The notes below the pieces were generated by a model that worked only from the letters and a program-made list of their open reading frames with translations, was not told where the DNA came from and did not search any database. A stretch of DNA of 64,000 nucleotides from assembly GCA_035402645.1 (NCBI GenBank), contig DAONDQ010000004.1, positions 293 through 64,292 on the forward strand, given 5' to 3'. Position 1 is the first letter of the stretch. Every line of letters starts with the position of its first letter. Below are positions 4,262 to 34,047 of this stretch, piece after piece. The position numbers were made by a program, and so were the translations under genes. Source of the stretch: Candidatus Cloacimonadota bacterium. GTDB taxonomy: Bacteria > Cloacimonadota > Cloacimonadia > Cloacimonadales > DAONDQ01.

Positions 4262-7147
4262 TTACCAAGTTGTTTCCACTACGTGACGGATAACAACATT
4301 GTCTGCTACCCAAATATAATTATAGCCACCATAGTAACCGCGTTCACCGTCTTTACCTGTCGATGTCGGTGTAGGTGCTGCACTAAGTGTCCTACGTGAT
4401 GCAATAGGCTGATTCTCGCTGTTACGGTAGAGCGTATAAGCTGCACCGTTAAATGCGTGTGAATCAAGTCCGGCATCGTAAGCGTATGCATTACCGGCAG
4501 TGTTCTTTTTGATTGTGAAATCAAAGTCGCCCGCTCCGGTATTGAATACAGAGTTCACTCCGCGTGTTTCAAATCCGATAGTAGGTCTAGTTGCAGTGTT
4601 GAAGAGTCCAACACCGAAGCAACTATTATAGATACAAGTTACCGCGCGGTCATTTGTAGCAAAGTACATCGGTTTGTTGGCATCGTTCGTGTTACCAAGA
4701 ACTACTGCTTCTGATTCTGCAATCGCGTTACCTGCAAGATCCTTAATAAAGGACGAACCCGCATAGGTCGCTCCGCACATTCTTATAAATGTACCTCTTG
4801 AAGTACCTCTGTTTGATGAAACAATCAATTCTGCAAGTCCTGCAGATGCACTGCCCAGTACCGACAACTGATTAGCAAAGCCATTAGTGATTTCAACAAA
4901 ATGTCCACTAATAGTAAGTTTGCTAGTGATTGACCAAGTACCGCCAAGTGTCATGCGAGCGACATCCATATTACCACTGACTATATCTGTTGTCGCGTGA
5001 GTATGACCGGTAAGAGAGAAGCTACTGAACGAGTAGCCACTGTCTTTAAGTATAGAACCTGTTGCGCCATTAAATGATGCGAAGTTTCCGTCTACTGCGC
5101 TTGTAGGACCGCTAACTATGCTATCAACATTGCGCTGAACAAGATTCCATTTGCTTCCAACAGTAGCTTGATCGCCGGATGCAGTTCCGTCGGTGTTACA
5201 AATCATCATATCACCAACTTCAACTATTGTACCGGATGATCCACCAATCTTTCCTGCTACTGAAACAACATACAGATGACCACAATCTGCTGCAGGATAA
5301 TTAGGAGAAGCTGCACAATCAATTACACCTTTGTACACTAGAGCATTTGCAGCTGCGATTAGACCATCAACATACAACTTATTTACAAGCTGATAGTCAG
5401 TAGTGGGAGATGCAGTAGGTCCGATTGGGAATGTTCCGAATGTATGAACATCTGTTCCCGCGTCGTAATTATATGCGATTCCAGAGGTTTTCTTATAGAT
5501 AAGGAAGTCCATATCTTGGGCATCCTTATTGAAGTAGTTAGCAAAAGCACCGGCAGTGTTACCATCGAATGATGCAATAACTTTACCGTTAGCTTCCAAC
5601 TGAATGAAACCACGTTGGAACTTCAATCTAGTATTAGTATCCGGAGTTCCTGCCATATAGTGACGTATGCTATCCGCTACCTGTATATCGCCATATATGA
5701 ATCTGACCACTGCACCGGAGATATCGAGAGTGGAATTGAGTGCCCAATCACCACTGAGAGGCATACGAGCGATATCAAGATTTCCACTTATTAAATCACT
5801 TGTTGCATGGCTATGACCGACCACCGATACAACATTTCCGGCAACAGTAACTTGTCCATCATTTCTGACTCTAAACAGGTCAGTATCAGACGAATTTGTT
5901 ACATGGAAAGCATCAACTTGATCATCACTTGTACGACCTTTAACTTTCAATCTGTCTTGAGATGTCCCGAGTGTACCTATTCCAAAACCGCCACTTGAGC
6001 CATTATAGAAGGAAGTGCTACTTCCACCGTTCATAACTATTCCTTGAGTGGAAGAGTTACCGCGATAGATATTGATTATACCACCAAGATTATCTGCACC
6101 AAATATGATACCAATATGATTAAATGTGGCTGCGGTATCTTCGAGCGTTAGGAATGTGAAAGTGGAATTATCTTTCGGTCCAATCATTCTGTGAGATGAC
6201 GTAACGGTCGACCATGTTCCGCCAACTGGCATAGCCAACGGATCGATTGTATCACCAGTATTATGTGCGCTAAGAACGGTCGTCGCGCGATCCCAAAGAT
6301 TTTCGGGAACTATTGCATCATCAACATACTTCTTATTAGCAAACTGATAATCCGTTGTTGGTGCTGCTGAAGGTCCGACAGGGAACGTGCTGAAAGTGTG
6401 CAAATCAAGTCCTGCATCATACTTATAAGCGTTGATTCCTGCGGTAGCTGCGCTTATGTTGAAGTCCAAATCTTGATGCCCGAAGTTGAAATCAATTACT
6501 CCGGACCCGAAAAGAAGACCATTGTAACTTATTCCGGAACTTATCTGTATGAGATTCAATCCACCTATTCTGCGAATAGTGGCAACACCACTTGCGCCTA
6601 AATAGAACTCAACACCGGTTGCAACTGTATTAACCATCTGAAACGCGAGAGCCTGTGCAGTTACATTGGTACTATTAAGTTTTACAGTTGTTGCTGATGC
6701 TAATGCGTTCTCGATTGTCAAATCACCAGTTACGTTCCAAGTTCCGCTAACTGGCATACGTGCGACATTGAGATTACCGCTTGAAAGGTCACCGGCTGAT
6801 CTCGTAGCAATGTCTGCGATGGACGACGTTGTCTTATCAATCATCGCCCAAGTATAATCATTGGCTGCAGGATAAACGTTACCCATTCTAGGTGCGCCCA
6901 TAGGTCCGAAGGATAGTACGCCCGATTGCATACTCGTATCAAGCCATGTGGCAGTTCCGGTATCCCATACCCACATAGTATCGGTAGAGCCAACGATTGC
7001 GAACCAACCCGCCTGTCCAGGTGTAGGCAAAGCTGCAGGATTTACATAGTATCCCTTGAAGTTCGCCAGTGATGCAAACTCTGCATGGTCATGACATACA
7101 AGACTTATGCCAAGTTTCTTTAAGAAAATGTCTACAACTGGAGTCAT
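4262..7147 (-). CDS. long tail fibre with a three-fold internal module repeat
   Basis: 961 aa. Three copies of SGN[LM][ND][VI]ARM[PT][VL][SG]G[TD]W are present. Three copies of ...YxYDAG[LT]DxH[TA]F... are also present. The first two of those are followed by PTTDYQxxNKxYVD, a common fibre-shaft motif. Confidence 0.7.
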   Translation of the reverse strand: MTPVVDIFLKKLGISLVCHDHAEFASLANFKGYYVNPAALPTPGQAGWFAIVGSTDTMWVWDTGTATWLDTSMQSGVLSFGPMGAPRMGNVYPAANDYTWAMIDKTTSSIADIATRSAGDLSSGNLNVARMPVSGTWNVTGDLTIENALASATTVKLNSTNVTAQALAFQMVNTVATGVEFYLGASGVATIRRIGGLNLIQISSGISYNGLLFGSGVIDFNFGHQDLDFNISAATAGINAYKYDAGLDLHTFSTFPVGPSAAPTTDYQFANKKYVDDAIVPENLWDRATTVLSAHNTGDTIDPLAMPVGGTWSTVTSSHRMIGPKDNSTFTFLTLEDTAATFNHIGIIFGADNLGGIINIYRGNSSTQGIVMNGGSSTSFYNGSSGGFGIGTLGTSQDRLKVKGRTSDDQVDAFHVTNSSDTDLFRVRNDGQVTVAGNVVSVVGHSHATSDLISGNLDIARMPLSGDWALNSTLDISGAVVRFIYGDIQVADSIRHYMAGTPDTNTRLKFQRGFIQLEANGKVIASFDGNTAGAFANYFNKDAQDMDFLIYKKTSGIAYNYDAGTDVHTFGTFPIGPTASPTTDYQLVNKLYVDGLIAAANALVYKGVIDCAASPNYPAADCGHLYVVSVAGKIGGSSGTIVEVGDMMICNTDGTASGDQATVGSKWNLVQRNVDSIVSGPTSAVDGNFASFNGATGSILKDSGYSFSSFSLTGHTHATTDIVSGNMDVARMTLGGTWSITSKLTISGHFVEITNGFANQLSVLGSASAGLAELIVSSNRGTSRGTFIRMCGATYAGSSFIKDLAGNAIAESEAVVLGNTNDANKPMYFATNDRAVTCIYNSCFGVGLFNTATRPTIGFETRGVNSVFNTGAGDFDFTIKKNTAGNAYAYDAGLDSHAFNGAAYTLYRNSENQPIASRRTLSAAPTPTSTGKDGERGYYGGYNYIWVADNVVIRHVVETTW

Positions 7148-11616: not shown

Positions 11617-11790
11617 GTAGTGCCTTCCCGCGAAAATATAAAAATCATAAATGCCGATTCACTTTTAACATTTGCCAACGACTCGTGTAACAATTACCCA
11701 CTGGCTCTCGGATTGTGCAATCCGTATGAAGTATTAAATACACCATATATGTGAGTTTCGATGGAGGGTTCGGCGGACTTGGAAAATTTC

Positions 11791-11860
11791 ACAACTTACT
11801 ACAACAATTATAACCCACCGCCTGTTGTAAATGGTTGTTGAATCACAACGCGATACAACA
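11791..11860. repeat. cluster of ACAAC/GTTGT pentamer repeats
   Basis: cACAACttactACAACaatt...ccTGTTGTaaatgGTTGTtgaatcACAACgcgatACAACaaaac. The order is two direct, two inverted and two direct copies, upstream of terS. Confidence 0.5.
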
Positions 11861-11934
11861 AAACTATTTTTAAAATATTTTATTTATTTTGCTTGTATAG
11901 TTTGTTTATTTACGAATGACAATTATATTATTAT

Positions 11935-12058
11935 AGGATAATAATATATCCTATGTTCATTGATAATATAATAGTTTGAAGTTTGTAAAAACTGGCACGA
12001 ACGTGCAAAGCTACAAATTAAAACAAAGGTAAATAATAACAAGATAAAAACTTGTTAT
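11935..12058 (+). promoter_or_regulatory. repeated regulatory module, copy A
   Basis: It opens with the near-palindrome AGGATAATAATATATCCT. A 24-nt block ATATATCCTATGTTCATTGATAAT (11944-11967) follows and is identical to 13236-13259. Next comes a nested hairpin at 11982-12017. The module ends with the hairpin ATAACAAG-ATAAAAA-CTTGTTAT (12036-12058). Confidence 0.55.
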
Positions 12059-12065
12059 CCTAATT

Positions 12066-12451
12066 GAAAAATTATTCTATTGTAATCTGTTGTATCGAAA
12101 ATAAAAAGGTGATACAATGAAAATTTTTAATTATCATTTCGTAATTTTTGGTACTAACGAAAAACGCAATTTAATTATTGACGCCTCTTGCGAATCTGAG
12201 GCAATACAAAAATTCAATTGCAAAACAGAATTACAAAATATTAGAATTGAAAAAATATCTTATGCAAATATTCCGAATAGGAAAAACGCTTATGGTGAAT
12301 TCGTTGTTCAAATTTATGTAAATGGGAAAAGACAAAAAGACAACGAATATTTCGCGACGAATTTCGATGACGCTTTAGCGACCGCGCAAAGTATGATAAC
12401 GAATTACTAAAACAAACAAGATACAACAGATTCACAATAGAATAATTTTTC
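12066..12451 (+). repeat. inverted-repeat pair 1, bracketing ORF 12117-12410
   Basis: The left arm 12066-12096 is GAAAAATTATTCTATTGTAATCTGTTGTATC. Its reverse complement matches 12420-12451 at all 31 positions, with one extra C in the right arm. Confidence 0.9.
12117..12410 (+). CDS. hypothetical early protein (97 aa)
   Basis: ORF preceded by the AAAAGGTGATACAATG leader. No motif recognised. Confidence 0.55.
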   Translation: MKIFNYHFVIFGTNEKRNLIIDASCESEAIQKFNCKTELQNIRIEKISYANIPNRKNAYGEFVVQIYVNGKRQKDNEYFATNFDDALATAQSMITNY

Positions 12452-12465
12452 AAACAAAATAAAAA

Positions 12466-12862
12466 TACTGTTGTATATTGTATAGCTTGCCTTTTGAAAA
12501 GGTGATAAAATGGAAATTAAAATTTTAAAGATAGATGGTTTTACTTGCCTTAATTATTTATCCAGTATGGAAACAATACAAGATAGATATTTAATTCAAG
12601 CGGTTATGTCATACGTTATACAACACAAGGAAACAAAAGTAATTGACCATGCATACTGGAAAGCGGAATATCATTTAATAATTGAAAATGCTTTTGAGAT
12701 ATTTTTTATTAAAGAGCAAACAAAGAAAACGGAAATATATTTAAAACTTATTCCGCTTGAAGAAAATTTATTTTTGAATTACGAATATCAAAATAAAATT
12801 CTATTACTTGGAATTGTCAATTAACAAAAGGCAAAAGGCAAGATATACAATATACAACAGTA
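12466..12862 (+). repeat. inverted-repeat pair 2, bracketing ORF 12510-12824
   Basis: The left arm 12466-12495 is TACTGTTGTATATTGTATAGCTTGCCTTTT. Its reverse complement matches 12833-12862 at 29 of 30 positions. Confidence 0.9.
12510..12824 (+). CDS. hypothetical early protein (104 aa)
   Basis: ORF preceded by the AAAAGGTGATAAAATG leader. No motif recognised. Confidence 0.55.
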   Translation: MEIKILKIDGFTCLNYLSSMETIQDRYLIQAVMSYVIQHKETKVIDHAYWKAEYHLIIENAFEIFFIKEQTKKTEIYLKLIPLEENLFLNYEYQNKILLLGIVN

Positions 12863-12864
12863 TA

Positions 12865-13112
12865 GAAAATATTTTTTAGTGCCTCTTGAATAGCCAAAAG
12901 GTGATAACATGAAAAGCGGAATAATGGAATTAATAAACAAACTGGAAAGAGTAAATAGGAAACTAAAAAGGCTTGAAAGCTATTTAAACAAAAGAGGAAA
13001 TGATATTTTACAGGAAAGACATTTTAGACTTTACAAGGAAAAAAGGCTTTTATTAAAGCATATTTCAATTGAACTAAATTAAAAATTTCAAGAGGCACTA
13101 AAAAATATTTTC
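12865..13112 (+). repeat. inverted-repeat pair 3, bracketing ORF 12909-13082
   Basis: The left arm 12865-12890 is GAAAATATTTTTTAGTGCCTCTTGAA. Its reverse complement is identical to 13087-13112 (26/26). Confidence 0.9.
12909..13082 (+). CDS. hypothetical coiled-coil miniprotein (57 aa, below the ORF-track cutoff)
   Basis: The ATG follows an AAAAGGTGATAACATG leader. The product is MKSGIMELINKLERVNRKLKRLESYLNKRGNDILQERHFRLYKEKRLLLKHISIELN. Confidence 0.45.
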   Translation: MKSGIMELINKLERVNRKLKRLESYLNKRGNDILQERHFRLYKEKRLLLKHISIELN

Positions 13113-13130
13113 AATTTATTTTGTAAAGGC

Positions 13131-13177
13131 TTGAAAATAATTTTTAGTATGCTGTAAATTCAGAAAATTATTTTCAA
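13131..13177 (+). terminator. AT-rich hairpin with a T-tract (weak intrinsic terminator, or an 'empty' fourth repeat unit)
   Basis: TTGAAAATAATTTT (13131-13144) and AAAATTATTTTCAA (13164-13177) pair 14/14 around a 19-nt loop. The downstream sequence is TTATTTTTTACTTTT. Confidence 0.45.
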
Positions 13178-13209
13178 TTATTTTTTACTTTTGTTTGAAC
13201 TATTAAATT

Positions 13210-13353
13210 AAGGATATACTATATATAAGGATATTATATATCCTATGTTCATTGATAATTAAATAGTGTTTTGTTTTTCAAAAACGGGATTTTGAAAATC
13301 CAAGCTGAAAACAAAATACAACAGGGAAATTAAAAAAGATAAAAACTTTTTTA
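13210..13353 (+). promoter_or_regulatory. repeated regulatory module, copy B
   Basis: AGGATAT..ATATCCT near-palindromes are followed by the 24-nt block 13236-13259, identical to copy A. A nested hairpin lies at 13268-13319. The module ends with the hairpin TAAAAAAG-ATAAAAA-CTTTTTTA (13331-13353), which has the same loop as copy A on a compensatorily changed stem. Confidence 0.55.
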
Positions 13354-13392
13354 CTGGATTACGATTTCAAATAATCTTAATCAAATTTCATT

Positions 13393-14490
13393 AAATGATT
13401 GAATATTGCTTTTCCGCTTTCCTCAAAAATGAGGTGCGTAAATGATTAATCTTAAAGGTCTTAAAATTCAGGAAATAGCAAAAGACAAGTGCTTTCCTAA
13501 CGTCAAAAATCCGAGAATTGAACTTATCACCTTTGATATAGATGATACGCTCAAAGATGAAAAGACTACAACAGGAATTAAAAAGCCTTGCGTTGTCTTT
13601 GATGATGGTTCGGGAAAATTTGAAATAGGGCAAGGTCACCGCCGTTGGGCAAGTGCCATGAAATTCGAACATATCAAAACTATTCCGTGTATTGTTATTC
13701 CGAAAAGCGGATTAACGGAATTGGATATGTTGGAAATTCTTATGGACCATAATGAGGAAACACCGCTTTCAAAAGCGGAATGTTTCAAGGCAATAAAGGA
13801 ATTTTTCCTTTTGTCTTTCGGTGATTCGGCAATAATAAAGCGTTGTAAAATGCTTCTGAATTCCTCTTTCGGTAGTCCATCGCCGGAAAAGATAAAAGAT
13901 GCTCGAAAAGAGGCGGTCGAAATGCATGAAGATGCCGACCGCGCCGAAGAAAAAGTAATTTTCGAAAAGCACCACGGCACTATTCAGAATTTCCGCCGTC
14001 TTGCCCTTTTGCCTGTTTCCGTTCAAGAGGAATATATAAAGGCATGGCAAGGTCGGAATTCCGACCTAACTCAGAAAGATATTAAAATACTTTCTGAATT
14101 TTGGAACGAACTTGTAAAGGCTAATCCGGAAACAAAGGTTTCCGAACCTCCAAAAGCGTTCGAAGATAAGGTCGAGGAACTAAAGGAAATAAACCGCCAA
14201 CCGGATGATAAGAAAAAATCCGTAAAGCGGTCAAAGTCCGACATAGAAAATATGTCAAAAGGCACTGAAAATGCTATCGTGCGGAAAACTCTTTCATGGG
14301 TTTTAGGTGAAATTACTGATTCCGAGTTGAAAGATTACGTCAAGGCAAAAAGCAACTAACTAACATGGGACGGGAAATCCCATGAATGAGATTTCGTTTT
14401 TATTGATTTTTATTGTAATAGCCTTTATATACTGGCTATGTTTTGAGAAATAAATAAAATCGGAAAGCGGAAAGCAATATTCAATTATTT
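13393..14490 (+). repeat. inverted-repeat pair bracketing the ParB-like gene
   Basis: The left arm 13393-13422 is AAATGATTGAATATTGCTTTTCCGCTTTCC. Its reverse complement matches 14462-14490 (GGAAAGCGGAAAGCAATATTCAATTATTT) with one indel and one mismatch. Confidence 0.85.
13442..14359 (+). CDS. ParB/Srx-fold N-terminal domain protein (paralogue 1)
   Basis: 305 aa. The ParB box-II-like sequence is EIGQGHRRWASAMKFEHIKTIPCIV. The C-terminal LSWVLGEITD matches LAWTIGEISD of ORF 28311-29213. Confidence 0.65.
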   Translation: MINLKGLKIQEIAKDKCFPNVKNPRIELITFDIDDTLKDEKTTTGIKKPCVVFDDGSGKFEIGQGHRRWASAMKFEHIKTIPCIVIPKSGLTELDMLEILMDHNEETPLSKAECFKAIKEFFLLSFGDSAIIKRCKMLLNSSFGSPSPEKIKDARKEAVEMHEDADRAEEKVIFEKHHGTIQNFRRLALLPVSVQEEYIKAWQGRNSDLTQKDIKILSEFWNELVKANPETKVSEPPKAFEDKVEELKEINRQPDDKKKSVKRSKSDIENMSKGTENAIVRKTLSWVLGEITDSELKDYVKAKSN

Positions 14491-14500
14491 AAGGAACAAA

Positions 14501-14737
14501 ATGGATGATATTTATAAAATTGTTTATTCCGATAAATTCGTTAATATGACGAATTTTGATTTGGCAAATTATTGCCGTCAAAACTTCGGCATTTTCTCGG
14601 ATTATTCGGAAAAGCTATTTGCGAATGATTCATACATCAAGTATCTATCTTGCGCGTTTACAGAATTGAAGAAAAATGACTCTGTAAAGGCGCAATATGT
14701 TCGCGAGGAAATTTTAAAACGATTGATGAATCAGTAA
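14501..14737 (+). CDS. hypothetical protein (78 aa)
   Basis: ORF with an AAGGAACAAAATG leader immediately after the right arm of the ParB-gene repeat. Confidence 0.45.
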   Translation: MDDIYKIVYSDKFVNMTNFDLANYCRQNFGIFSDYSEKLFANDSYIKYLSCAFTELKKNDSVKAQYVREEILKRLMNQ

Positions 14738-14751
14738 CAAAGGGGAAAATT

Positions 14752-14934
14752 ATGATGAAAAGTACAACAGAAACTCTTTTGGAATACTTCTTTGATTCGC
14801 TTATTATGCATGACTATGACAACGCCGACGACATCATCGAAGATTTCCGAAATTTTCCCGATTTTTACAAAGAATTGAATCGTATGTATACCGAAGCAAC
14901 AAAGGAAAGGAATCCGGTACAATGGAAAAGCTAA
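14752..14934 (+). CDS. hypothetical protein (60 aa)
   Basis: ORF preceded by GGGGAAAATTATG, in an operon with its neighbours. Confidence 0.4.
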   Translation: MMKSTTETLLEYFFDSLIMHDYDNADDIIEDFRNFPDFYKELNRMYTEATKERNPVQWKS

Positions 14935-15098
14935 TTGAATTGCACACGATGTATTGCTTGGATGCCATCGTCGACGGAGATTTCAAAAGTTACAAGAAAA
15001 GCTATCTGTATCTTGCGGAATTGAGCAGGAAATTCACTAAACTGCACAAATTCATCGTCATGATTCTCGAATCATTAGAAGAAAGGAGGATGGCATGA
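14922..15098 (+). CDS. hypothetical protein (58 aa, below the ORF-track cutoff)
   Basis: The ATG at 14922 overlaps the end of the previous ORF. The product begins MEKLIELHTMYCLDAIVDGDFKSYKK and the stop is at 15096-15098. The terminator follows 35 nt later. Confidence 0.4.
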   Translation: MEKLIELHTMYCLDAIVDGDFKSYKKSYLYLAELSRKFTKLHKFIVMILESLEERRMA

Positions 15099-15133
15099 AG
15101 TAAACAAGTAAAATTAGTCCTTTTTGATCATGA

Positions 15134-15170
15134 ATGGCGCATAATTTACCCCGATTATGCGCCATTTTTC
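15134..15170 (+). terminator. rho-independent terminator ending the plus-strand early block
   Basis: A perfect 12-bp stem, ATGGCGCATAAT / ATTATGCGCCAT, closes an 8-nt loop and is followed by TTTTC. Confidence 0.8.
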
Positions 15171-15460
15171 GTGCCTGTAAACCGATGACGGCAGAATCAC
15201 CACATAAGGCGCTGATTCTCCGCCCTGCATCCATTTCCGCCTGTAAAAGCGCTAAAAAGCATTAATCATGATTTGCTGATCTTAGCGAATCATAAAATAC
15301 AATGTATCGCGAAAACTGGCTTCGTGGTAAATTCCGGATTGATTCTTCGGTACTCCGAAGATTACATGATTTAGTGCCAAGATTAACAATGTTAGTTTTA
15401 CGAGTTTGGATTTGGTCAGTAAAGGGAAGTCGGATTCAGAATCATTTTGAGGCTGGATTC

Positions 15461-15502
15461 TAACTTACTTACTAATATACTTACTAACTAACTAACTAAC
15501 TT
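15461..15502. repeat. TAACTTAC / CTAA short tandem repeats
   Basis: TAACTTACTTACTAATATACTTACTAACTAACTAACTAACTT. TAACTTAC is the reverse complement of the GTAAGTTA iterons at 33901-33924. Confidence 0.8.
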
Positions 15503-28310: not shown

Positions 28311-29213
28311 TTACTGTTCTGAATCACTGTTATCACCCACCAGTTGAGATGTCGTGCTTATACACTGTGATTCCGGCATTACGAACTTGATGTTATTCTC
28401 CTTCGCGACGTGTTCGACAGTGAGAAGCATATCGTAATCACTTATCTCACCTATTGTCCATGCAAGGGCACGAGTAGCAAGTCCGTTACCAAATGTTTCA
28501 CGAATCAAAGTCTGAAGTTCCAGTACCTCGGACACGTGCCTCTGCCTCTTGGCATCTTTCTTTGCTACTCTAATGGTCATCTTCTTTCCATTAGCAGTGC
28601 CTTTAGTTCCCTTGTATTTGTGAACCAACTGAACCATGTCATCGATTGATCCGCCGTTCTTTCTAATAGTATACAGGTCACGAATCATGGTCTGATTGAT
28701 ATTACCAAGTCTTGCTTCTTCTTGGAACTCTTTAGGTAATTGGAGAAGCATACACCGAACCTGTACCCAACCACGAGTTGAGGACAACTTGTCTGCTATC
28801 TCCTGTTGAGTCATTCCTAAGTCGATGAACTTGCCTAATGCATTAGTTTCATCCATGATGTTTAAATCTGCTCTCTTGATGTTCTCCGCGAGATTTATGA
28901 ATCGCGCTTCCACATCACTAAGGTCATCACGTATGAAGCAAGGTATGGTCTCGGCTTCATTTACTTGATGCGCTTTGAATCGACGATGACCTGCAACGAT
29001 TATATACTTCTTACCATCTTTAGGCTCTTTCAATGTCCTAACGATGATTGGTGCGTGTAGACCGTTCTTTTTTATATCGTCAGCTATATCCACCACACTC
29101 AAAGCACTGAAACTACCACGACAGTTGAAATCCGGATCAGCGAATATTTCCTTCACCGGAATCTGATGTACTTGATAGCGTTCCTTCATGTTTTCCAACG
29201 ATAAATCTGCCAT
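28311..29213 (-). CDS. ParB/Srx-fold N-terminal domain protein (paralogue 2)
   Basis: YIIVAGHRRFKAHQVNEAETIPCFI is like ParB box II (GxRRxxA), followed by an HTH-like MTQQEIADKLSSTRGWV. Confidence 0.7.
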   Translation of the reverse strand: MADLSLENMKERYQVHQIPVKEIFADPDFNCRGSFSALSVVDIADDIKKNGLHAPIIVRTLKEPKDGKKYIIVAGHRRFKAHQVNEAETIPCFIRDDLSDVEARFINLAENIKRADLNIMDETNALGKFIDLGMTQQEIADKLSSTRGWVQVRCMLLQLPKEFQEEARLGNINQTMIRDLYTIRKNGGSIDDMVQLVHKYKGTKGTANGKKMTIRVAKKDAKRQRHVSEVLELQTLIRETFGNGLATRALAWTIGEISDYDMLLTVEHVAKENNIKFVMPESQCISTTSQLVGDNSDSEQ

Positions 29214-32663: not shown

Positions 32664-33665
32664 TTATGCGATCTTGATTCCGACGGAAGCGGCATCCTTC
32701 TTAGCCTGCTCTGCTTCCTTCTGAAGTTTGGCAATCTTTGCCTCGGCGTTCTCGTACTTCTTCTGAACGGTTTCCTTGATACGCCTTTCCTTCGCTTCGG
32801 CGAGAGCCTTCTTACGGGCTTCGTACTTGGCGAGAGATTCGGCAATCGCGGCTTTGTCCATTTTCAGAACCCAGCGAATCGCAAGTGCGAATCCATCGGC
32901 AGGAGTACCGGCGTTTTCCTCTTTGCAGAGTTTCGCGCCAATAGCCGGTGATTCATATTCACCCTTGATTTCGGCAGGTTTCCTCATGACAGGAATTGCC
33001 ACGAATTCTTCCGGCTGACCGTCCTTGCCTTCGCGACGTGCCTTGTCGAGTTCCTTCTTCCTTGATTCAACAAGGGGAACGAATTCAACGGGAGGAAGAG
33101 TCATGGCTCTGTCAAGGAAAGCTGCGATTTCGCCTTCGGGTAGCTTGCTGAGTGCATACGCATTACCGAGTTTGATTTCACCGCTATCAACGGAGTCCTG
33201 TACTTCCTTGGGAAGAGTAAGGAGACCAAAGCGTTCTGAAATCCATGCCGTTGATTTGCAAATCTTCTGAGCGAGATCGGCAACGGTCATGAGAGGGTAG
33301 ACGGAAAGCATACGCTTGAGACCTTTGGCGTACTCAACGGGCTTTGTGTCGACCTTCTGAATATTCGCAACAATCTGAGTTTCAAGAGCTTCTGCCTCTG
33401 AAACATCGAGGATCTGAACAGGTATCTCAATCAAACCTGCCCTCTTTGCGCCTGTATAGCGATGGAGACCATCAACGATACAGAATTTCCCCGCATTTTC
33501 GCCGTCGCGGAGTTCACGGACGCTAATGGGATTTACGATTCCCTTAGCCTTAATCGATTCTGCAATCTCCTGGAACTGTTCTGATTCCTCATTTACTGAG
33601 CGCAGAGCGACGGGAGATTCGACGATCTGATCCAGTTTGAGTGTCGCAAGTTTTGACATTTGCAA
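32664..33665 (-). CDS. ParB/Srx-fold N-terminal domain protein (paralogue 3) with a Lys/Ala/Glu-rich C-terminal tail
   Basis: CIVDGLHRYTGAKRAGLIEIPVQIL (ParB box II-like) is followed by an HTH-like MTVADLAQKICKSTAWISERF. This is the first gene of the minus-strand block. Confidence 0.65.
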   Translation of the reverse strand: MQMSKLATLKLDQIVESPVALRSVNEESEQFQEIAESIKAKGIVNPISVRELRDGENAGKFCIVDGLHRYTGAKRAGLIEIPVQILDVSEAEALETQIVANIQKVDTKPVEYAKGLKRMLSVYPLMTVADLAQKICKSTAWISERFGLLTLPKEVQDSVDSGEIKLGNAYALSKLPEGEIAAFLDRAMTLPPVEFVPLVESRKKELDKARREGKDGQPEEFVAIPVMRKPAEIKGEYESPAIGAKLCKEENAGTPADGFALAIRWVLKMDKAAIAESLAKYEARKKALAEAKERRIKETVQKKYENAEAKIAKLQKEAEQAKKDAASVGIKIA

Positions 33666-33784
33666 CTCCTTTCTCGTGATTGTTCAATCATTGCACTTTT
33701 AAGGAAACAATAATCATAATCATCAAAACAGAATTCCGGCAATCTTCTGATTGTGATTATCAATATAGTTCCTTCCGTCAATGT

Positions 33785-33813
33785 ACTATACTACAATATA
33801 TAAGAAAAAACAA
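33785..33813 (-). promoter_or_regulatory. sigma70-type promoter, copy 2 of 3 (drives the minus-strand replication block)
   Basis: The minus strand reads TTGTTT-17 nt-TATAGT, inside the left arm of the inverted repeat. Confidence 0.55.
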
Positions 33814-33900
33814 GTAAGGTTACAAACTTACTAAAAAACAGTTTGAAATACGTTTATATATATGGTATATATTACAATATTTAGCAATCTATAAATATTT

Positions 33901-33924: not shown

Positions 33925-33932
33925 AATAATAC

Positions 33933-33961
33933 TTGTTTTTTACCTTATATTGTAGTATAGT
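33933..33961 (+). promoter_or_regulatory. sigma70-type promoter, copy 3 of 3 (drives the primase-methylase block)
   Basis: TTGTTT-17 nt-TATAGT, inside the right arm of the inverted repeat. Confidence 0.55.
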
Positions 33962-34047
33962 ACATTGTAAGGAATTTACCCGTTGCAGAATCACAATCAT
34001 AAGCATTTCAAAATTGATTGTGATTATTTAAAAAGATTGGCTAATCA

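Follow-up and report, generated by a model that had tools for sequence, protein, structure and literature searches.

In the window, by which we mean the whole stretch of 64,000 nucleotides analysed here, four gene units of an uncultured phage are each enclosed by a long inverted repeat, with one arm just 5′ of the SD and the other just 3′ of the last stop codon. We propose that each cistron thereby has its own long-range stalk of the type known from rRNA, and that this stalk is probably cut by the host RNase III to yield monocistronic mRNAs whose ends remain paired, a reading to which we give a probability of about 0.55. The same layout is found in eight relatives.

Bracketed units in the window

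A sequence-only reading of this DNA had reported three inverted repeats, each bracketing a small ORF (97, 104 and 57 aa) preceded by a nearly identical leader, and all of these elements were recovered from the window sequence at the positions it gave (Table 1). Pair 1 consists of 31 matches and a 1-nt bulge and can be extended to 33 bp with the same bulge (12064-12096 / 12420-12453; duplex ΔG of −42 kcal/mol), pair 2 is complementary at 31 of 32 positions (97%), with a single G.A mismatch (−45 kcal/mol), and pair 3 matches at 26 of 26. The leader AAAAGGTGATA..ATG is common to the three ORFs, with 13-20 nt between the end of the left arm and the ATG and 4-9 nt between the stop and the right arm. 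A further bracket, overlooked in that reading, is formed by 34 bp with one bulge (−45.5 kcal/mol) and holds both a ParB_N-like ORF and a hydrophobic micro-ORF of 23 aa.

Table 1. Positions of the bracketed units and of neighbouring elements in the window
Feature	Position	Strand	Remarks
Promoter-like repeat, copy 1	11932-11991	+	palindrome AGGATAATAATATATCCT, then TGTTCATTGA at 11954-11963; upstream of unit 1
Left arm, unit 1	12066-12096	+	pairs with 12420-12451
ORF of 97 aa, unit 1	12117-12410	+	SD AAAAGGTGATA upstream; weak hit to the functionally uncharacterised family phrog_7884
Right arm, unit 1	12420-12451	+	begins 9 nt past the stop
Left arm, unit 2	12465-12496	+	complementary to 12832-12863
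ORF of 104 aa (orf104), unit 2	12510-12824	+	ORFan
Right arm, unit 2	12832-12863	+	begins 7 nt past the stop
Left arm, unit 3 (L3)	12865-12890	+	complementary to 13087-13112
ORF of 57 aa, unit 3	12909-13082	+	conserved family; in relatives likewise the final unit ahead of the ParB promoter
Right arm, unit 3 (R3)	13087-13112	+	begins 4 nt past the stop; U-rich sequence follows
Terminator-like hairpin and U-rich tail	13131-13200	+	each half is a degenerate copy of an arm of unit 3 (L3, R3)
Promoter-like repeat, copy 2	13224-13283	+	same repeat family as copy 1; upstream of the ParB unit
Left arm, unit 4 (ParB unit)	13387-13422	+	pairs with 14462-14496; kept in MFE and centroid folds
ParB_N-domain protein, 305 aa, unit 4	13442-14359	+	PF02195, E=4e-6; ParB-like PHROGs
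Hydrophobic micro-ORF, 23 aa (MNEISFLLIFIVIAFIYWLCFEK), unit 4	14382-14453	+	within the ParB-unit bracket
Right arm, unit 4 (R4)	14462-14496	+	begins 8 nt past the micro-ORF stop

These repeats are far beyond chance expectation. The region contains three pairs that are 24 nt or longer and 92% or more identical, whereas 200 dinucleotide-preserving shuffles gave 0.005 such pairs on average, and the ORFs of units 1-3 rank as the top three among the 249 ORFs of the window in flank-to-flank duplex strength. Other window ORFs that score high by this measure were found on inspection to have ragged, imperfect pairings, and a 38-nt inverted repeat at 33779/33930 has no ORF between its arms and represents a different kind of feature.

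The claim that the pairs differ from one another in sequence holds in that the arms are largely unit-specific, but CTGTTGTAT / ATACAACAG is common to pairs 1 and 2, so that the arms are not wholly private. The sequence-only reading had also taken the short repeat at 13131-13144 / 13164-13177 for a fourth pair that could be an empty unit or a terminator. The hairpin exists, with 14 of 14 matches, but it is not independent of unit 3: 13131-13148 is a near copy of the left arm and could itself alternatively pair with R3, and 13164-13185 is a copy of the right arm. Given that it is a degenerate copy of the arms of pair 3 followed by a U-rich tail, the 13131-13177 hairpin is likely a terminator, and the idea of an empty unit is disfavoured.

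The sequence TGTTCWTTGA occurs on the plus strand only in the two promoter-like repeats, and the palindrome together with the TGTTCTTTGA motif is also present upstream of the corresponding modules of two relatives (L012 and L020). Judging from these sequence features, the repeats may act as promoters. A scan for sigma-70 and terminator consensus sequences gave nothing above shuffles, no terminator-like sites were found between the units, and an Rfam search returned no matches.

Conservation and compensatory evolution of the arms

In total, there are 28 stem-enclosed units in nine phages, four in the window and 24 in the eight relatives, where the ParB-like protein is 44-70% identical across the family and the terminase 54-69% identical in four of the eight. 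The stems have a median length of 27 bp (range 20-34 bp; at least 22 bp in 24 of 28), and 15 of them are uninterrupted helices of Watson-Crick and G.U pairs. Arms rich in AT are longer than those rich in GC, so that stem stability is held constant over the 28 stems. The register with the translation signals is also fixed, as most units have 1-23 nt between the end of the left arm and the start, with the SD outside the stem, and the right arm begins 3-16 nt past the last stop. A pyrimidine.pyrimidine mismatch recurs 12-15 nt into the left arm in stems that are otherwise unrelated.

The gene content of the units varies between relatives and the bracket is kept. A search for homologues of orf104 among 5.8 billion clusters matched nothing except orf104 itself, and the unit 3 ORF is 58% identical in amino acids to an ORF of L016 and 29% to orf65 of L020; in this orf57 family, the arms travel with their ORF. 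A hydrophobic ORF of 19-23 aa occupies the micro-ORF position in seven of the eight lineages examined (a set that does not include L022), with a GTG start in L016. Four independent metagenome assemblies of the phage, compared as assemblies rather than as raw reads, show 100% identity and share one orientation. The bracket architecture is missing from the more distant terminase relatives (L001-L003; 47-49%); a 30-nt repeat in L002 and L003 encloses iteron-like palindromes, is origin-like, and was not counted as a bracket.

Drift of the arms without compensation, the contrary outcome considered in the sequence-only reading, is not what the relatives display: arm sequences diverge between lineages and their complementarity is kept. 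Homologous units, which are not fully independent phylogenetically, contain 25 double compensated substitutions and 21 one-sided changes that still pair. At one arm position, three phages have G-C, A-U or C-G; an indel (T6/A6 versus T5/A5) is compensated between the arms; and the unit 3 arms show compensated changes in the L016 and L012 homologues. These changes were counted by script, a MAFFT alignment of arm constructs being out of register and not used, and the near-identical strains L004-L010 were left out because, at 100% identity, they are useless for covariation.

The arms also carry a strand bias. In strictly defined arm pairs, there are 702 Watson-Crick pairs and, on the sense strand, 24 G.U against 5 A.C (p=5e-4), or 21 against 5 once shared ancestry is removed as far as these not fully independent lineages allow. 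An earlier count, in which the arms were padded by 10 nt, gave 20 G.U against 9 A.C (p=0.06), with three of the nine A.C located in an AT-rich extension of pair 1 that is doubtful. In 18 of 25 units, the sense strand forms a more stable duplex than its antisense counterpart. The excess of sense-strand G.U points to selection on the transcript, and to an RNA duplex in the mRNA and not to a repeat acting at the DNA level.

If the repeats did act in DNA, each unit could be a mobile or invertible cassette, moved by inversion between its arms or by single-strand folding like that of integron attC sites; in one variant, a circular cassette with a palindrome would be recombined at its apex and would integrate between inverted repeats. 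The changing gene content within a constant bracket, the joint movement of arms and ORF in the orf57 family, and the ORFan status of orf104 would all fit such an element, and, since G.T is also the mismatch most tolerated in folded single-stranded DNA, the strand bias is not strictly incompatible with a fold of this type. Nevertheless, we consider DNA-level action very unlikely. Inversion systems such as invertons and shufflons are argued against by the single orientation in four independent, identical assemblies, by arms that are largely unit-specific and without a common core for one site-specific enzyme, and by the absence of any recombinase, integrase or transposase gene among about 38 ORFs scanned, which cover nearly the whole genome but few of the small ORFs; the same scan detected no phage gene for RNase III or RNA polymerase. 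An integron attC site would be a local imperfect palindrome with R/L boxes at the 3′ end of each ORF, served by an integrase, but the junctions in the window are not palindromic and the scan gave no integrase, and MITEs or other TIR elements fit poorly with arms that differ between units and with unit boundaries that, as read, have no target-site duplication. Furthermore, the arms are registered to the translation signals and not to one another, the mismatch bias follows the coding strand, and arms 200-1000 nt apart would need long-lived single-stranded DNA to fold. A strand-specific fold of single-stranded DNA would likewise be predicted to give such a G.U bias, which counts against the RNA reading.

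Predicted folds and intergenic junctions

Every long-range stem is retained in the MFE and centroid folds of the whole operons, and successive stems are separated by spacers of only 0-14 nt. The earlier proposal that each RBS and ORF would form the loop of a long RNA duplex is therefore supported by the folds, in addition to the compensation and the sense G.U excess. The window junctions at 12412-12500 and 12826-12895 fold to only about −12 kcal/mol (z of −1.9 and −2.5), and because they have no significant local hairpin, the contrast that had been drawn with the local hairpins of T7 stands for the window. The L020 relative combines the two arrangements: its junctions are local palindromes of −25 and −39 kcal/mol (z of −6 and −10), so that its arms can form both brackets and strong T7-like hairpins. 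Its units 1-3 share the core ATTGAATATGTCTATAGAG, and private extensions lengthen the brackets past this core.

The L020 layout, with its shared core and palindromic junctions, is exactly what one would expect if an ancestral palindrome, either a terminator or a T7-like RNase III hairpin, had been repeated between genes, as each gene would then automatically be flanked by its halves and the long-range pairing would be a by-product with no function of its own. The window even retains a remnant of such a junction palindrome (GATACAACAG at 12420-12429 versus CTGTTGTATA at 12468-12477). We find this explanation very improbable, given that the weakly folding junctions of the window stand against bracketing partners of 26-34 bp and that diverged arms stay complementary to their bracketing partner and not to their neighbour. 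Even in L020, where private extensions carry the brackets past the common core, folding at full length favours the brackets.

A proposed processing stalk for each cistron

The module at about 11.9-15.1 kb is probably a pair of early operons transcribed by the host RNA polymerase. In the polycistronic transcript, the 20-34 nt just 5′ of each SD would pair with the 20-34 nt just 3′ of the stop, so that each cistron would become the loop of its own long-range stem. As near-perfect double-stranded RNA of about two helical turns or more, these stems would most likely be cut by the host RNase III, and each cistron would be released as a separate mRNA whose leftover 5′ and 3′ half-arms stay base-paired. 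The paired ends may shield the 5′ end from 5′-end-dependent RNases and stop 3′ exonucleases, and the stems may insulate the folding and translation of a cistron from its neighbours, allowing rapidly exchanged accessory genes to be expressed predictably.

Several observations are those expected of a stalk: the flanks of the enclosed RNA pair at long range, the duplexes reach at least about 20-22 bp, and compensatory changes on the transcribed strand preserve the pairing. The MAG label Candidatus Cloacimonadota is the sole hint to the host, and we assume that this host possesses an RNase III of suitable specificity. It should also be considered that a 30-bp stem starting 3-9 nt past a stop codon would be partly melted by the terminating ribosome, and translation and stem formation may thus conflict. 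Bracketing does not seem to be obligatory for expression, as three ORFs at 14501-15098, downstream in the ParB operon, have no individual brackets. With regard to length, the idealised substrate of E. coli RNase III is 22 bp, and interruptions in a stem can direct single-strand cleavage (PMC3867540); the recurrent pyrimidine.pyrimidine mismatch described above is an interruption of this kind.

The stems might instead form and remain uncleaved, acting as structural clamps that place the stop beside the SD of the same cistron (a closed loop that would favour re-initiation), or as insulators, blocks to exonucleases or Rho, or switches. For instance, the pairing of R3 with L3 or with 13131-13148 could control the putative terminator at 13131-13177, and R4 could hide the SD of orf78, the next ORF, which starts at 14501, this SD (AAGGAA, 14491-14496) lying within the distal end of the arm. 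All of the RNA-level evidence applies equally to such clamps, and the very short and constant distances from arm to SD and from stop to arm, the alternative pairings around 13087-13185, and the location of the orf78 SD speak in their favour. However, stems that escape RNase III usually carry antideterminants or many interruptions, whereas 15 of the 28 here have no interruption, and we know of no closed-loop translation mechanism established in bacteria. Moreover, RNase III normally accepts uninterrupted double-stranded RNA of 19-33 bp as a substrate (PMC3867540). Thus, we regard uncleaved stems as unlikely, while taking them as the most serious competitor of the processing stalk.

Building on the processing stalk, one may speculate further that this phage clade packs its accessory genes as self-contained arm-SD-ORF-arm cassettes, the processed mRNAs having their ends held together in a manner that guards both ends from decay and recycles terminating ribosomes to the same start, and that the arms move with the gene when it is exchanged between phages. 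We offer this extension only tentatively. If true, such mRNAs would amount to a bacterial equivalent of the closed-loop mRNAs of eukaryotes.

Comparison with known systems

A close parallel is found in the 16S and 23S stalks of rrn operons, in which the flanks also pair over hundreds to thousands of nucleotides, the spacers between stalks are short, and the stem length suits RNase III (PMC4838370; PMC3867540). In the phages, by contrast, the enclosed RNA is a protein-coding cistron with its SD, of 200-1070 nt, each gene of an operon has one stalk, pairing in the stems is almost perfect, and cleavage is a proposal.

In T7, the early polycistronic mRNA is divided into monocistronic ones at intergenic double-stranded elements, where stem interruptions lead to single-strand cuts that leave stabilising structures (PMC3867540). 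Our module would likewise be a phage early polycistronic transcript with double-stranded elements at gene borders, presumably divided there. Nevertheless, each T7 signal is a local hairpin within one intergenic region, while here the duplex joins the two flanks of the same gene; stable local hairpins in the intergenic regions were found only in L020.

Pairing between the two ends of one mRNA is also known from single genes. In Staphylococcus aureus icaR, an anti-SD motif in the 3′-UTR pairs with the 5′-UTR, which makes an RNase III substrate, occludes the SD and represses, and in Bacillus subtilis hbs, a 14-nt pairing of the ends shields the mRNA against a ribonuclease (PMC3868564; PMC7821165). 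Those pairings are short, whereas here they reach 20-34 bp and recur at every cistron of an array, with the SD lying free between the left arm and the start; the only SD inside any arm is that of the ORF downstream of R4.

In the PeSL cassettes of T4-type phages, direct repeats of a promoter and a local terminator hairpin act through DNA recombination, and short regulatory elements also punctuate small, fast-evolving ORFs of unknown function in a plastic region (PMC2839356). The module studied here differs in having just two promoter-like copies for at least seven ORFs, no terminator-like sites between units, inverted repeats that are mostly unit-specific, and an RNA-level signature. The sequence-only reading knew of no phage gene organisation of this kind, and we too found no description in the literature of phage mRNAs in which each gene and its RBS are enclosed by an RNA stem of their own.

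Implications and distribution

Were the processing stalk to be confirmed, this would be the first case known to us of a virus that gives every cistron of an operon its own rRNA-style stalk, and the processing logic of stable RNAs would extend to messenger RNAs. It would also imply a rule that does not depend on sequence, in that any flank complementarity of 25-30 bp would insulate and stabilise a single gene within a polycistronic transcript. Synthetic biology currently uses ribozymes, Csy4 sites or engineered sites for RNase III to this end. Furthermore, the system makes it possible to ask experimentally whether pairing of its ends protects a bacterial mRNA and favours re-initiation.

Flank complementarity is a simple sequence signature with which similar modules might be recognised in other uncultured phages. 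A DNA search of 50,697 deposited phage genomes gave no match, no relatives were found in IMG/VR with orf97, orf104, the ParB protein or a ParB profile, nor in a scan of a genome collection, and a JGI metagenome scan returned two short loci only. The ParB-like protein family is small, with 11 clusters, and the closest relative of the ParB-like protein of the window is P0128, at 70% identity.

Bracketed genes in the window

The three inverted-repeat pairs that a sequence-only reading had placed around small ORFs of 97, 104 and 57 aa (units 1 to 3) were recovered when region 11700-13500 was read and passed through a repeat finder, and the ORFs and their common leader (AAAAGGTGATA..ATG) are as it described. 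Shuffling 11900-14600 with dinucleotide content preserved (200 shuffles) gave a mean of 0.005 pairs that were 24 nt or longer, at least 92% identical and 100-1200 nt apart, compared with the three observed. Among the 249 window ORFs of at least 50 aa, the same three gave the top three duplexes between upstream and downstream flanks, and those ranked below them were ragged, imperfect pairings. The pairs had also been called private to their units, which is true only in part: pairs 1 and 2 have CTGTTGTAT / ATACAACAG in common. A motif, (A)TACAACAG, and its complement CTGTTGTA are repeated at ORF-proximal arm ends in two different phages, and the motif is found beyond the arms too, in both leaders.

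A window-wide scan combined with a gapped search revealed an additional, previously overlooked bracket around a ParB_N-domain ORF and a micro-ORF (the ParB unit). Conversely, a fourth pair, formerly considered a possible empty unit, does not stand on its own, as its halves are copies of the unit 3 arms (GAAAATAaTTTTTAGT vs GAAAATAtTTTTTAGT for the left arm), and right arm 3 is an alternative pairing partner of its left half. The other option offered for it, a terminator, fares better: because a U-rich tract directly follows, this hairpin is best read as a terminator-like element descended from the unit 3 arms, possibly acting as a switch.

Coordinates of the bracketed module and associated features (window positions unless a related phage locus, L0xx, is named)
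Feature	Position	Strand	Remarks
Pair 1	12066-12096 / 12420-12451	+	31 matches, one bulged G; 33 bp by gapped search
Pair 2	12465-12496 / 12832-12863	+	31/32, one G.A mismatch
Pair 3	12865-12890 / 13087-13112	+	26/26
Fourth pair (terminal hairpin)	13131-13144 / 13164-13177		hairpin 13131-13177; halves (13131-13148, 13164-13185) are copies of left and right arm 3, respectively
ParB-unit bracket	13387-13422 / 14462-14496		34 bp, one bulge; dG = -45.5 kcal/mol
ParB_N-domain ORF	13442-14359	+	Pfam E=4e-6; within ParB-unit bracket
Hydrophobic micro-ORF, 23 aa	14382-14453	+	within ParB-unit bracket; right arm begins 8 nt past its stop
Other ParB_N-domain ORFs	28311-29213; 32664-33665	-
Promoter-like element	11932-11991, 13224-13283; L012 ~6640-6720, 5990-6050; L020 235-300, 1630-1720		window copies form a 60-nt direct repeat, ahead of unit 1 and of the ParB unit
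(A)TACAACAG/CTGTTGTA motif	11851-11860, 12421-12429, 12852-12860, 13315-13323; L020 696-703, 1322-1329		L020 sites in right arms
38-nt inverted repeat	33779-33816 / 33930-33967		89% complementary; encloses 113 nt
Iteron-like repeats	L012 4020-4200; L003 7230-7420		L012 in minus-strand reading

Conservation in related phages

We found no close relative among deposited phage genomes or in IMG/VR. Over 11700-15200, four contigs assembled from different metagenome samples show 100% identity, with no inversion, no unit loss and zero variation among them. With the terminase and the ParB-like protein serving as anchors, we found eight distinct phages, L011, L012, L015, L016, L018, L019, L020 and L022 (terminase identity to the window is 69% in L011, 61% in L012 and 54% in L022), all eight of which have the bracketed architecture. 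Including the window, the ParB-like gene is bracketed in 9/9 phages by stems of 25-34 bp, and the upstream small ORFs have their own pair each. Together, the nine phages have 28 units, whose stems have a median length of 27 bp (at least 22 bp in 24 of them) and a dG of -27 to -59 kcal/mol; because arms rich in AT are longer than those rich in GC, stem stability is roughly constant. In most units, the left arm ends 1-23 nt ahead of the start, with the SD in that gap; exceptions include two ParB units, whose leaders extend to 47 and 72 nt. On the other side, the right arm starts 3-16 nt past the last stop, and successive stems are 0-14 nt apart. The architecture is absent from the more distant terminase relatives L001-L003 (47-49%), and the feature is thus limited to one clade.

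A strongly hydrophobic micro-ORF of 19-23 aa follows the ParB-like gene, inside the bracket, in seven of the eight lineages examined (the window, L011, L012, L015, L016, L018, L019 and L020, that is, all but L022). Its products, for instance MNEISFLLIFIVIAFIYWLCFEK and MTMGAIGIMIIIIFVVVIVFND, are probably a conserved small membrane peptide overlooked by gene callers. The phage encodes three ParB_N-domain proteins, two of them canonical (ParB_N + HTH_ParB); the bracketed one is divergent, and its family is small, with just 11 clusters.

Evidence for selection on pairing at the RNA level

The sequence-only reading had named compensation between arms in relatives as the test of its structural interpretation, which came through it: the arms have diverged between lineages, and each remains complementary to its own partner. 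For instance, in the close pairs WIN (the window)/L016 and L011/L019, the distal half of the ParB arms is held in common, and the ORF-proximal halves are entirely different and still paired. When base pairs were mapped between homologous units, we counted 25 cases of double compensation and 21 in which only one side had changed and pairing was kept through G.U. In the family of the 57-aa ORF, three phages each have a different pair at one position (G-C, A-U and C-G), and a one-base difference in the length of a T-run is mirrored in the partner's A-run.

If DNA complementarity alone mattered, a transition in one arm would be expected to yield G.U and A.C equally often on the coding strand. In strictly defined, strand-neutral arm alignments, the coding-strand pairs comprise 702 Watson-Crick, 24 G.U, 5 A.C and 11 transversion mismatches (G.U vs A.C, binomial p = 5e-4; 21 vs 5 once three positions common to homologous arms are collapsed), and three of the five A.C lie in conserved interruptions. 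In 18 of 25 units, it is the sense strand that forms the more stable duplex, with an advantage over the antisense strand of up to 13 kcal/mol. Of the 11 transversion mismatches, nine set pyrimidine against pyrimidine, 12-15 nt into the left arm of unrelated stems, and in six ParB stems, which fall into three groups of unrelated sequence, the single interruption is 11-12 bp from the distal end. The imperfection bias, sense stability and mismatch placement indicate that the coding strand gives rise to a structured RNA; computationally, the case for selection on this RNA structure is strong. Action at the DNA level, through inversion, cassette recombination or single-stranded DNA folding, is disfavoured, given that this bias follows the coding strand, that the arms are in register with translation signals and have no shared core site, that the assemblies are identical and co-oriented, and that no recombinase was detected among the ~38 ORFs scanned.

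The recurring left-arm mismatch (C.U, U.C or C.C, or C.A) occurs in ParB and several small-ORF stems (L011, L015, L018, L019, L020 and L022), and could be a cleavage-site or recognition feature.

Folding and possible origin of the brackets

Folded as RNA, the complete first operon (12040-13200) and the ParB unit (13370-14520) retain the four long-range stems as well as the terminal hairpin, in MFE and centroid structures alike, in agreement with the proposal that each RBS and ORF form the loop of a long duplex. The contrast drawn with T7-type local hairpins is also borne out in the window, where the junctions (right arm n + left arm n+1) lack significant local structure (-12.4 and -12.8 kcal/mol; z -1.9 and -2.5). 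The possibility that the brackets are a passive by-product of repeated palindromes is disfavoured, as these junctions do not fold and the arms covary with their bracketing partner. In L020, units 1-3 have the core ATTGAATATGTCTATAGAG in common, which makes every junction a strong palindrome locally as well (-25 and -39 kcal/mol); beside each ORF, private extensions lengthen the brackets, and the full-length fold still favours them. This layout suggests that the brackets arose from a repeated T7-like intergenic hairpin. It also suggests convergence of the local-hairpin and bracket folding routes: either cut would leave an mRNA with complementary half-arms.

Proposed mechanism and known systems

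The most likely mechanism is a processing stalk for each cistron. The canonical substrate of bacterial RNase III is near-perfect dsRNA at least two helical turns long; where the target site has a bulge or mismatch, only one strand is cut, and a stabilising structure can be left behind (PMC3867540). Stem cleavage would free each cistron with its ends still paired, which would protect both mRNA ends and insulate the cassette from its neighbours; as the phage apparently has no such nuclease of its own, host RNase III would do the cutting. All of the RNA-level evidence also fits uncleaved stems acting as a clamp, closed loop or switch, a role that cannot be separated from cleavage here. The SD (AAGGAA, 14491-14496) of the next, unbracketed ORF (14501-14737) sits in the distal end of the ParB-unit right arm, so that it would stay hidden for as long as the stem is neither opened nor cut.

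The likeness proposed to rRNA processing stalks is apt in geometry (PMC4838370), although the RNAs enclosed here are mRNAs, while T7 early mRNA processing has the same biological setting but relies on local hairpins. Pairing between 5′ and 3′ UTRs is known in single bacterial mRNAs: that of icaR is an RNase III substrate and occludes the SD, and that of hbs spans 14 nt and is protective (PMC3868564; PMC7821165). Unlike the phage brackets, these pairings are short and one-off. PeSL cassettes are likewise interspersed in comparable arrays of small ORFs in phages, but as direct repeats that act via DNA recombination (PMC2839356). We would place the brackets with the known long-range RNase III-type stalks or 5′-3′ end pairing. 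Rfam gave no match for the module, and, in line with the sequence-only reading, which knew of no such phage organisation, our full-text literature search found no description of phage genes individually bracketed by long inverted repeats.

Genomic setting

The window is nearly the whole phage genome (source contig, 64,564 nt). We identified a gpA-type large terminase, a P22-like coat protein, a tape-measure protein, DNA polymerase A, DNA ligase, a SNF2 helicase, a primase/helicase-like protein, Dam methylase and the two canonical ParB proteins; no RNase III, RNA polymerase, recombinase or transposase was detected among the ~38 ORFs scanned, a set with few of the small ORFs. One source's MAG label on window proteins is only a hint that the host is Candidatus Cloacimonadota. 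The module is a + strand island between two minus-strand blocks, adjoining the terminase genes, with a GC of 0.295 (12001-14000) vs ~0.42 typical of the genome (range 0.35-0.46). Its GC and AT skews are opposite to those of most of the genome.

Both copies of the 60-nt repeat contain a palindrome followed by TGTTCATTGA, a decamer whose only two + strand sites in 64 kb lie in these repeats, from which we infer two promoters. The element before both operons, in L012 and L020 as in the window, consists of a 16-20 nt AT-rich palindrome, then (A)TGTTC(A/T)TTGA; it is unlike a standard sigma-70 promoter, and a sigma-70 consensus scan was uninformative.

In the window's other divergent intergenic region, the 38-nt inverted repeat encloses TTAGTAAG tandem repeats and may mark an origin or regulatory region. 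Similar CTTACTAA/TTAGTAAG runs are found at 15460-15500 and in both module flanks in L012. Just downstream of the module in relatives, there are iteron-like tandem repeats, namely GTCAAATAAGCACCACAATAGC in L012 (about six copies) and GTGTAGGATTTCCCTACA in L003 (four copies, within a 30-nt inverted repeat).
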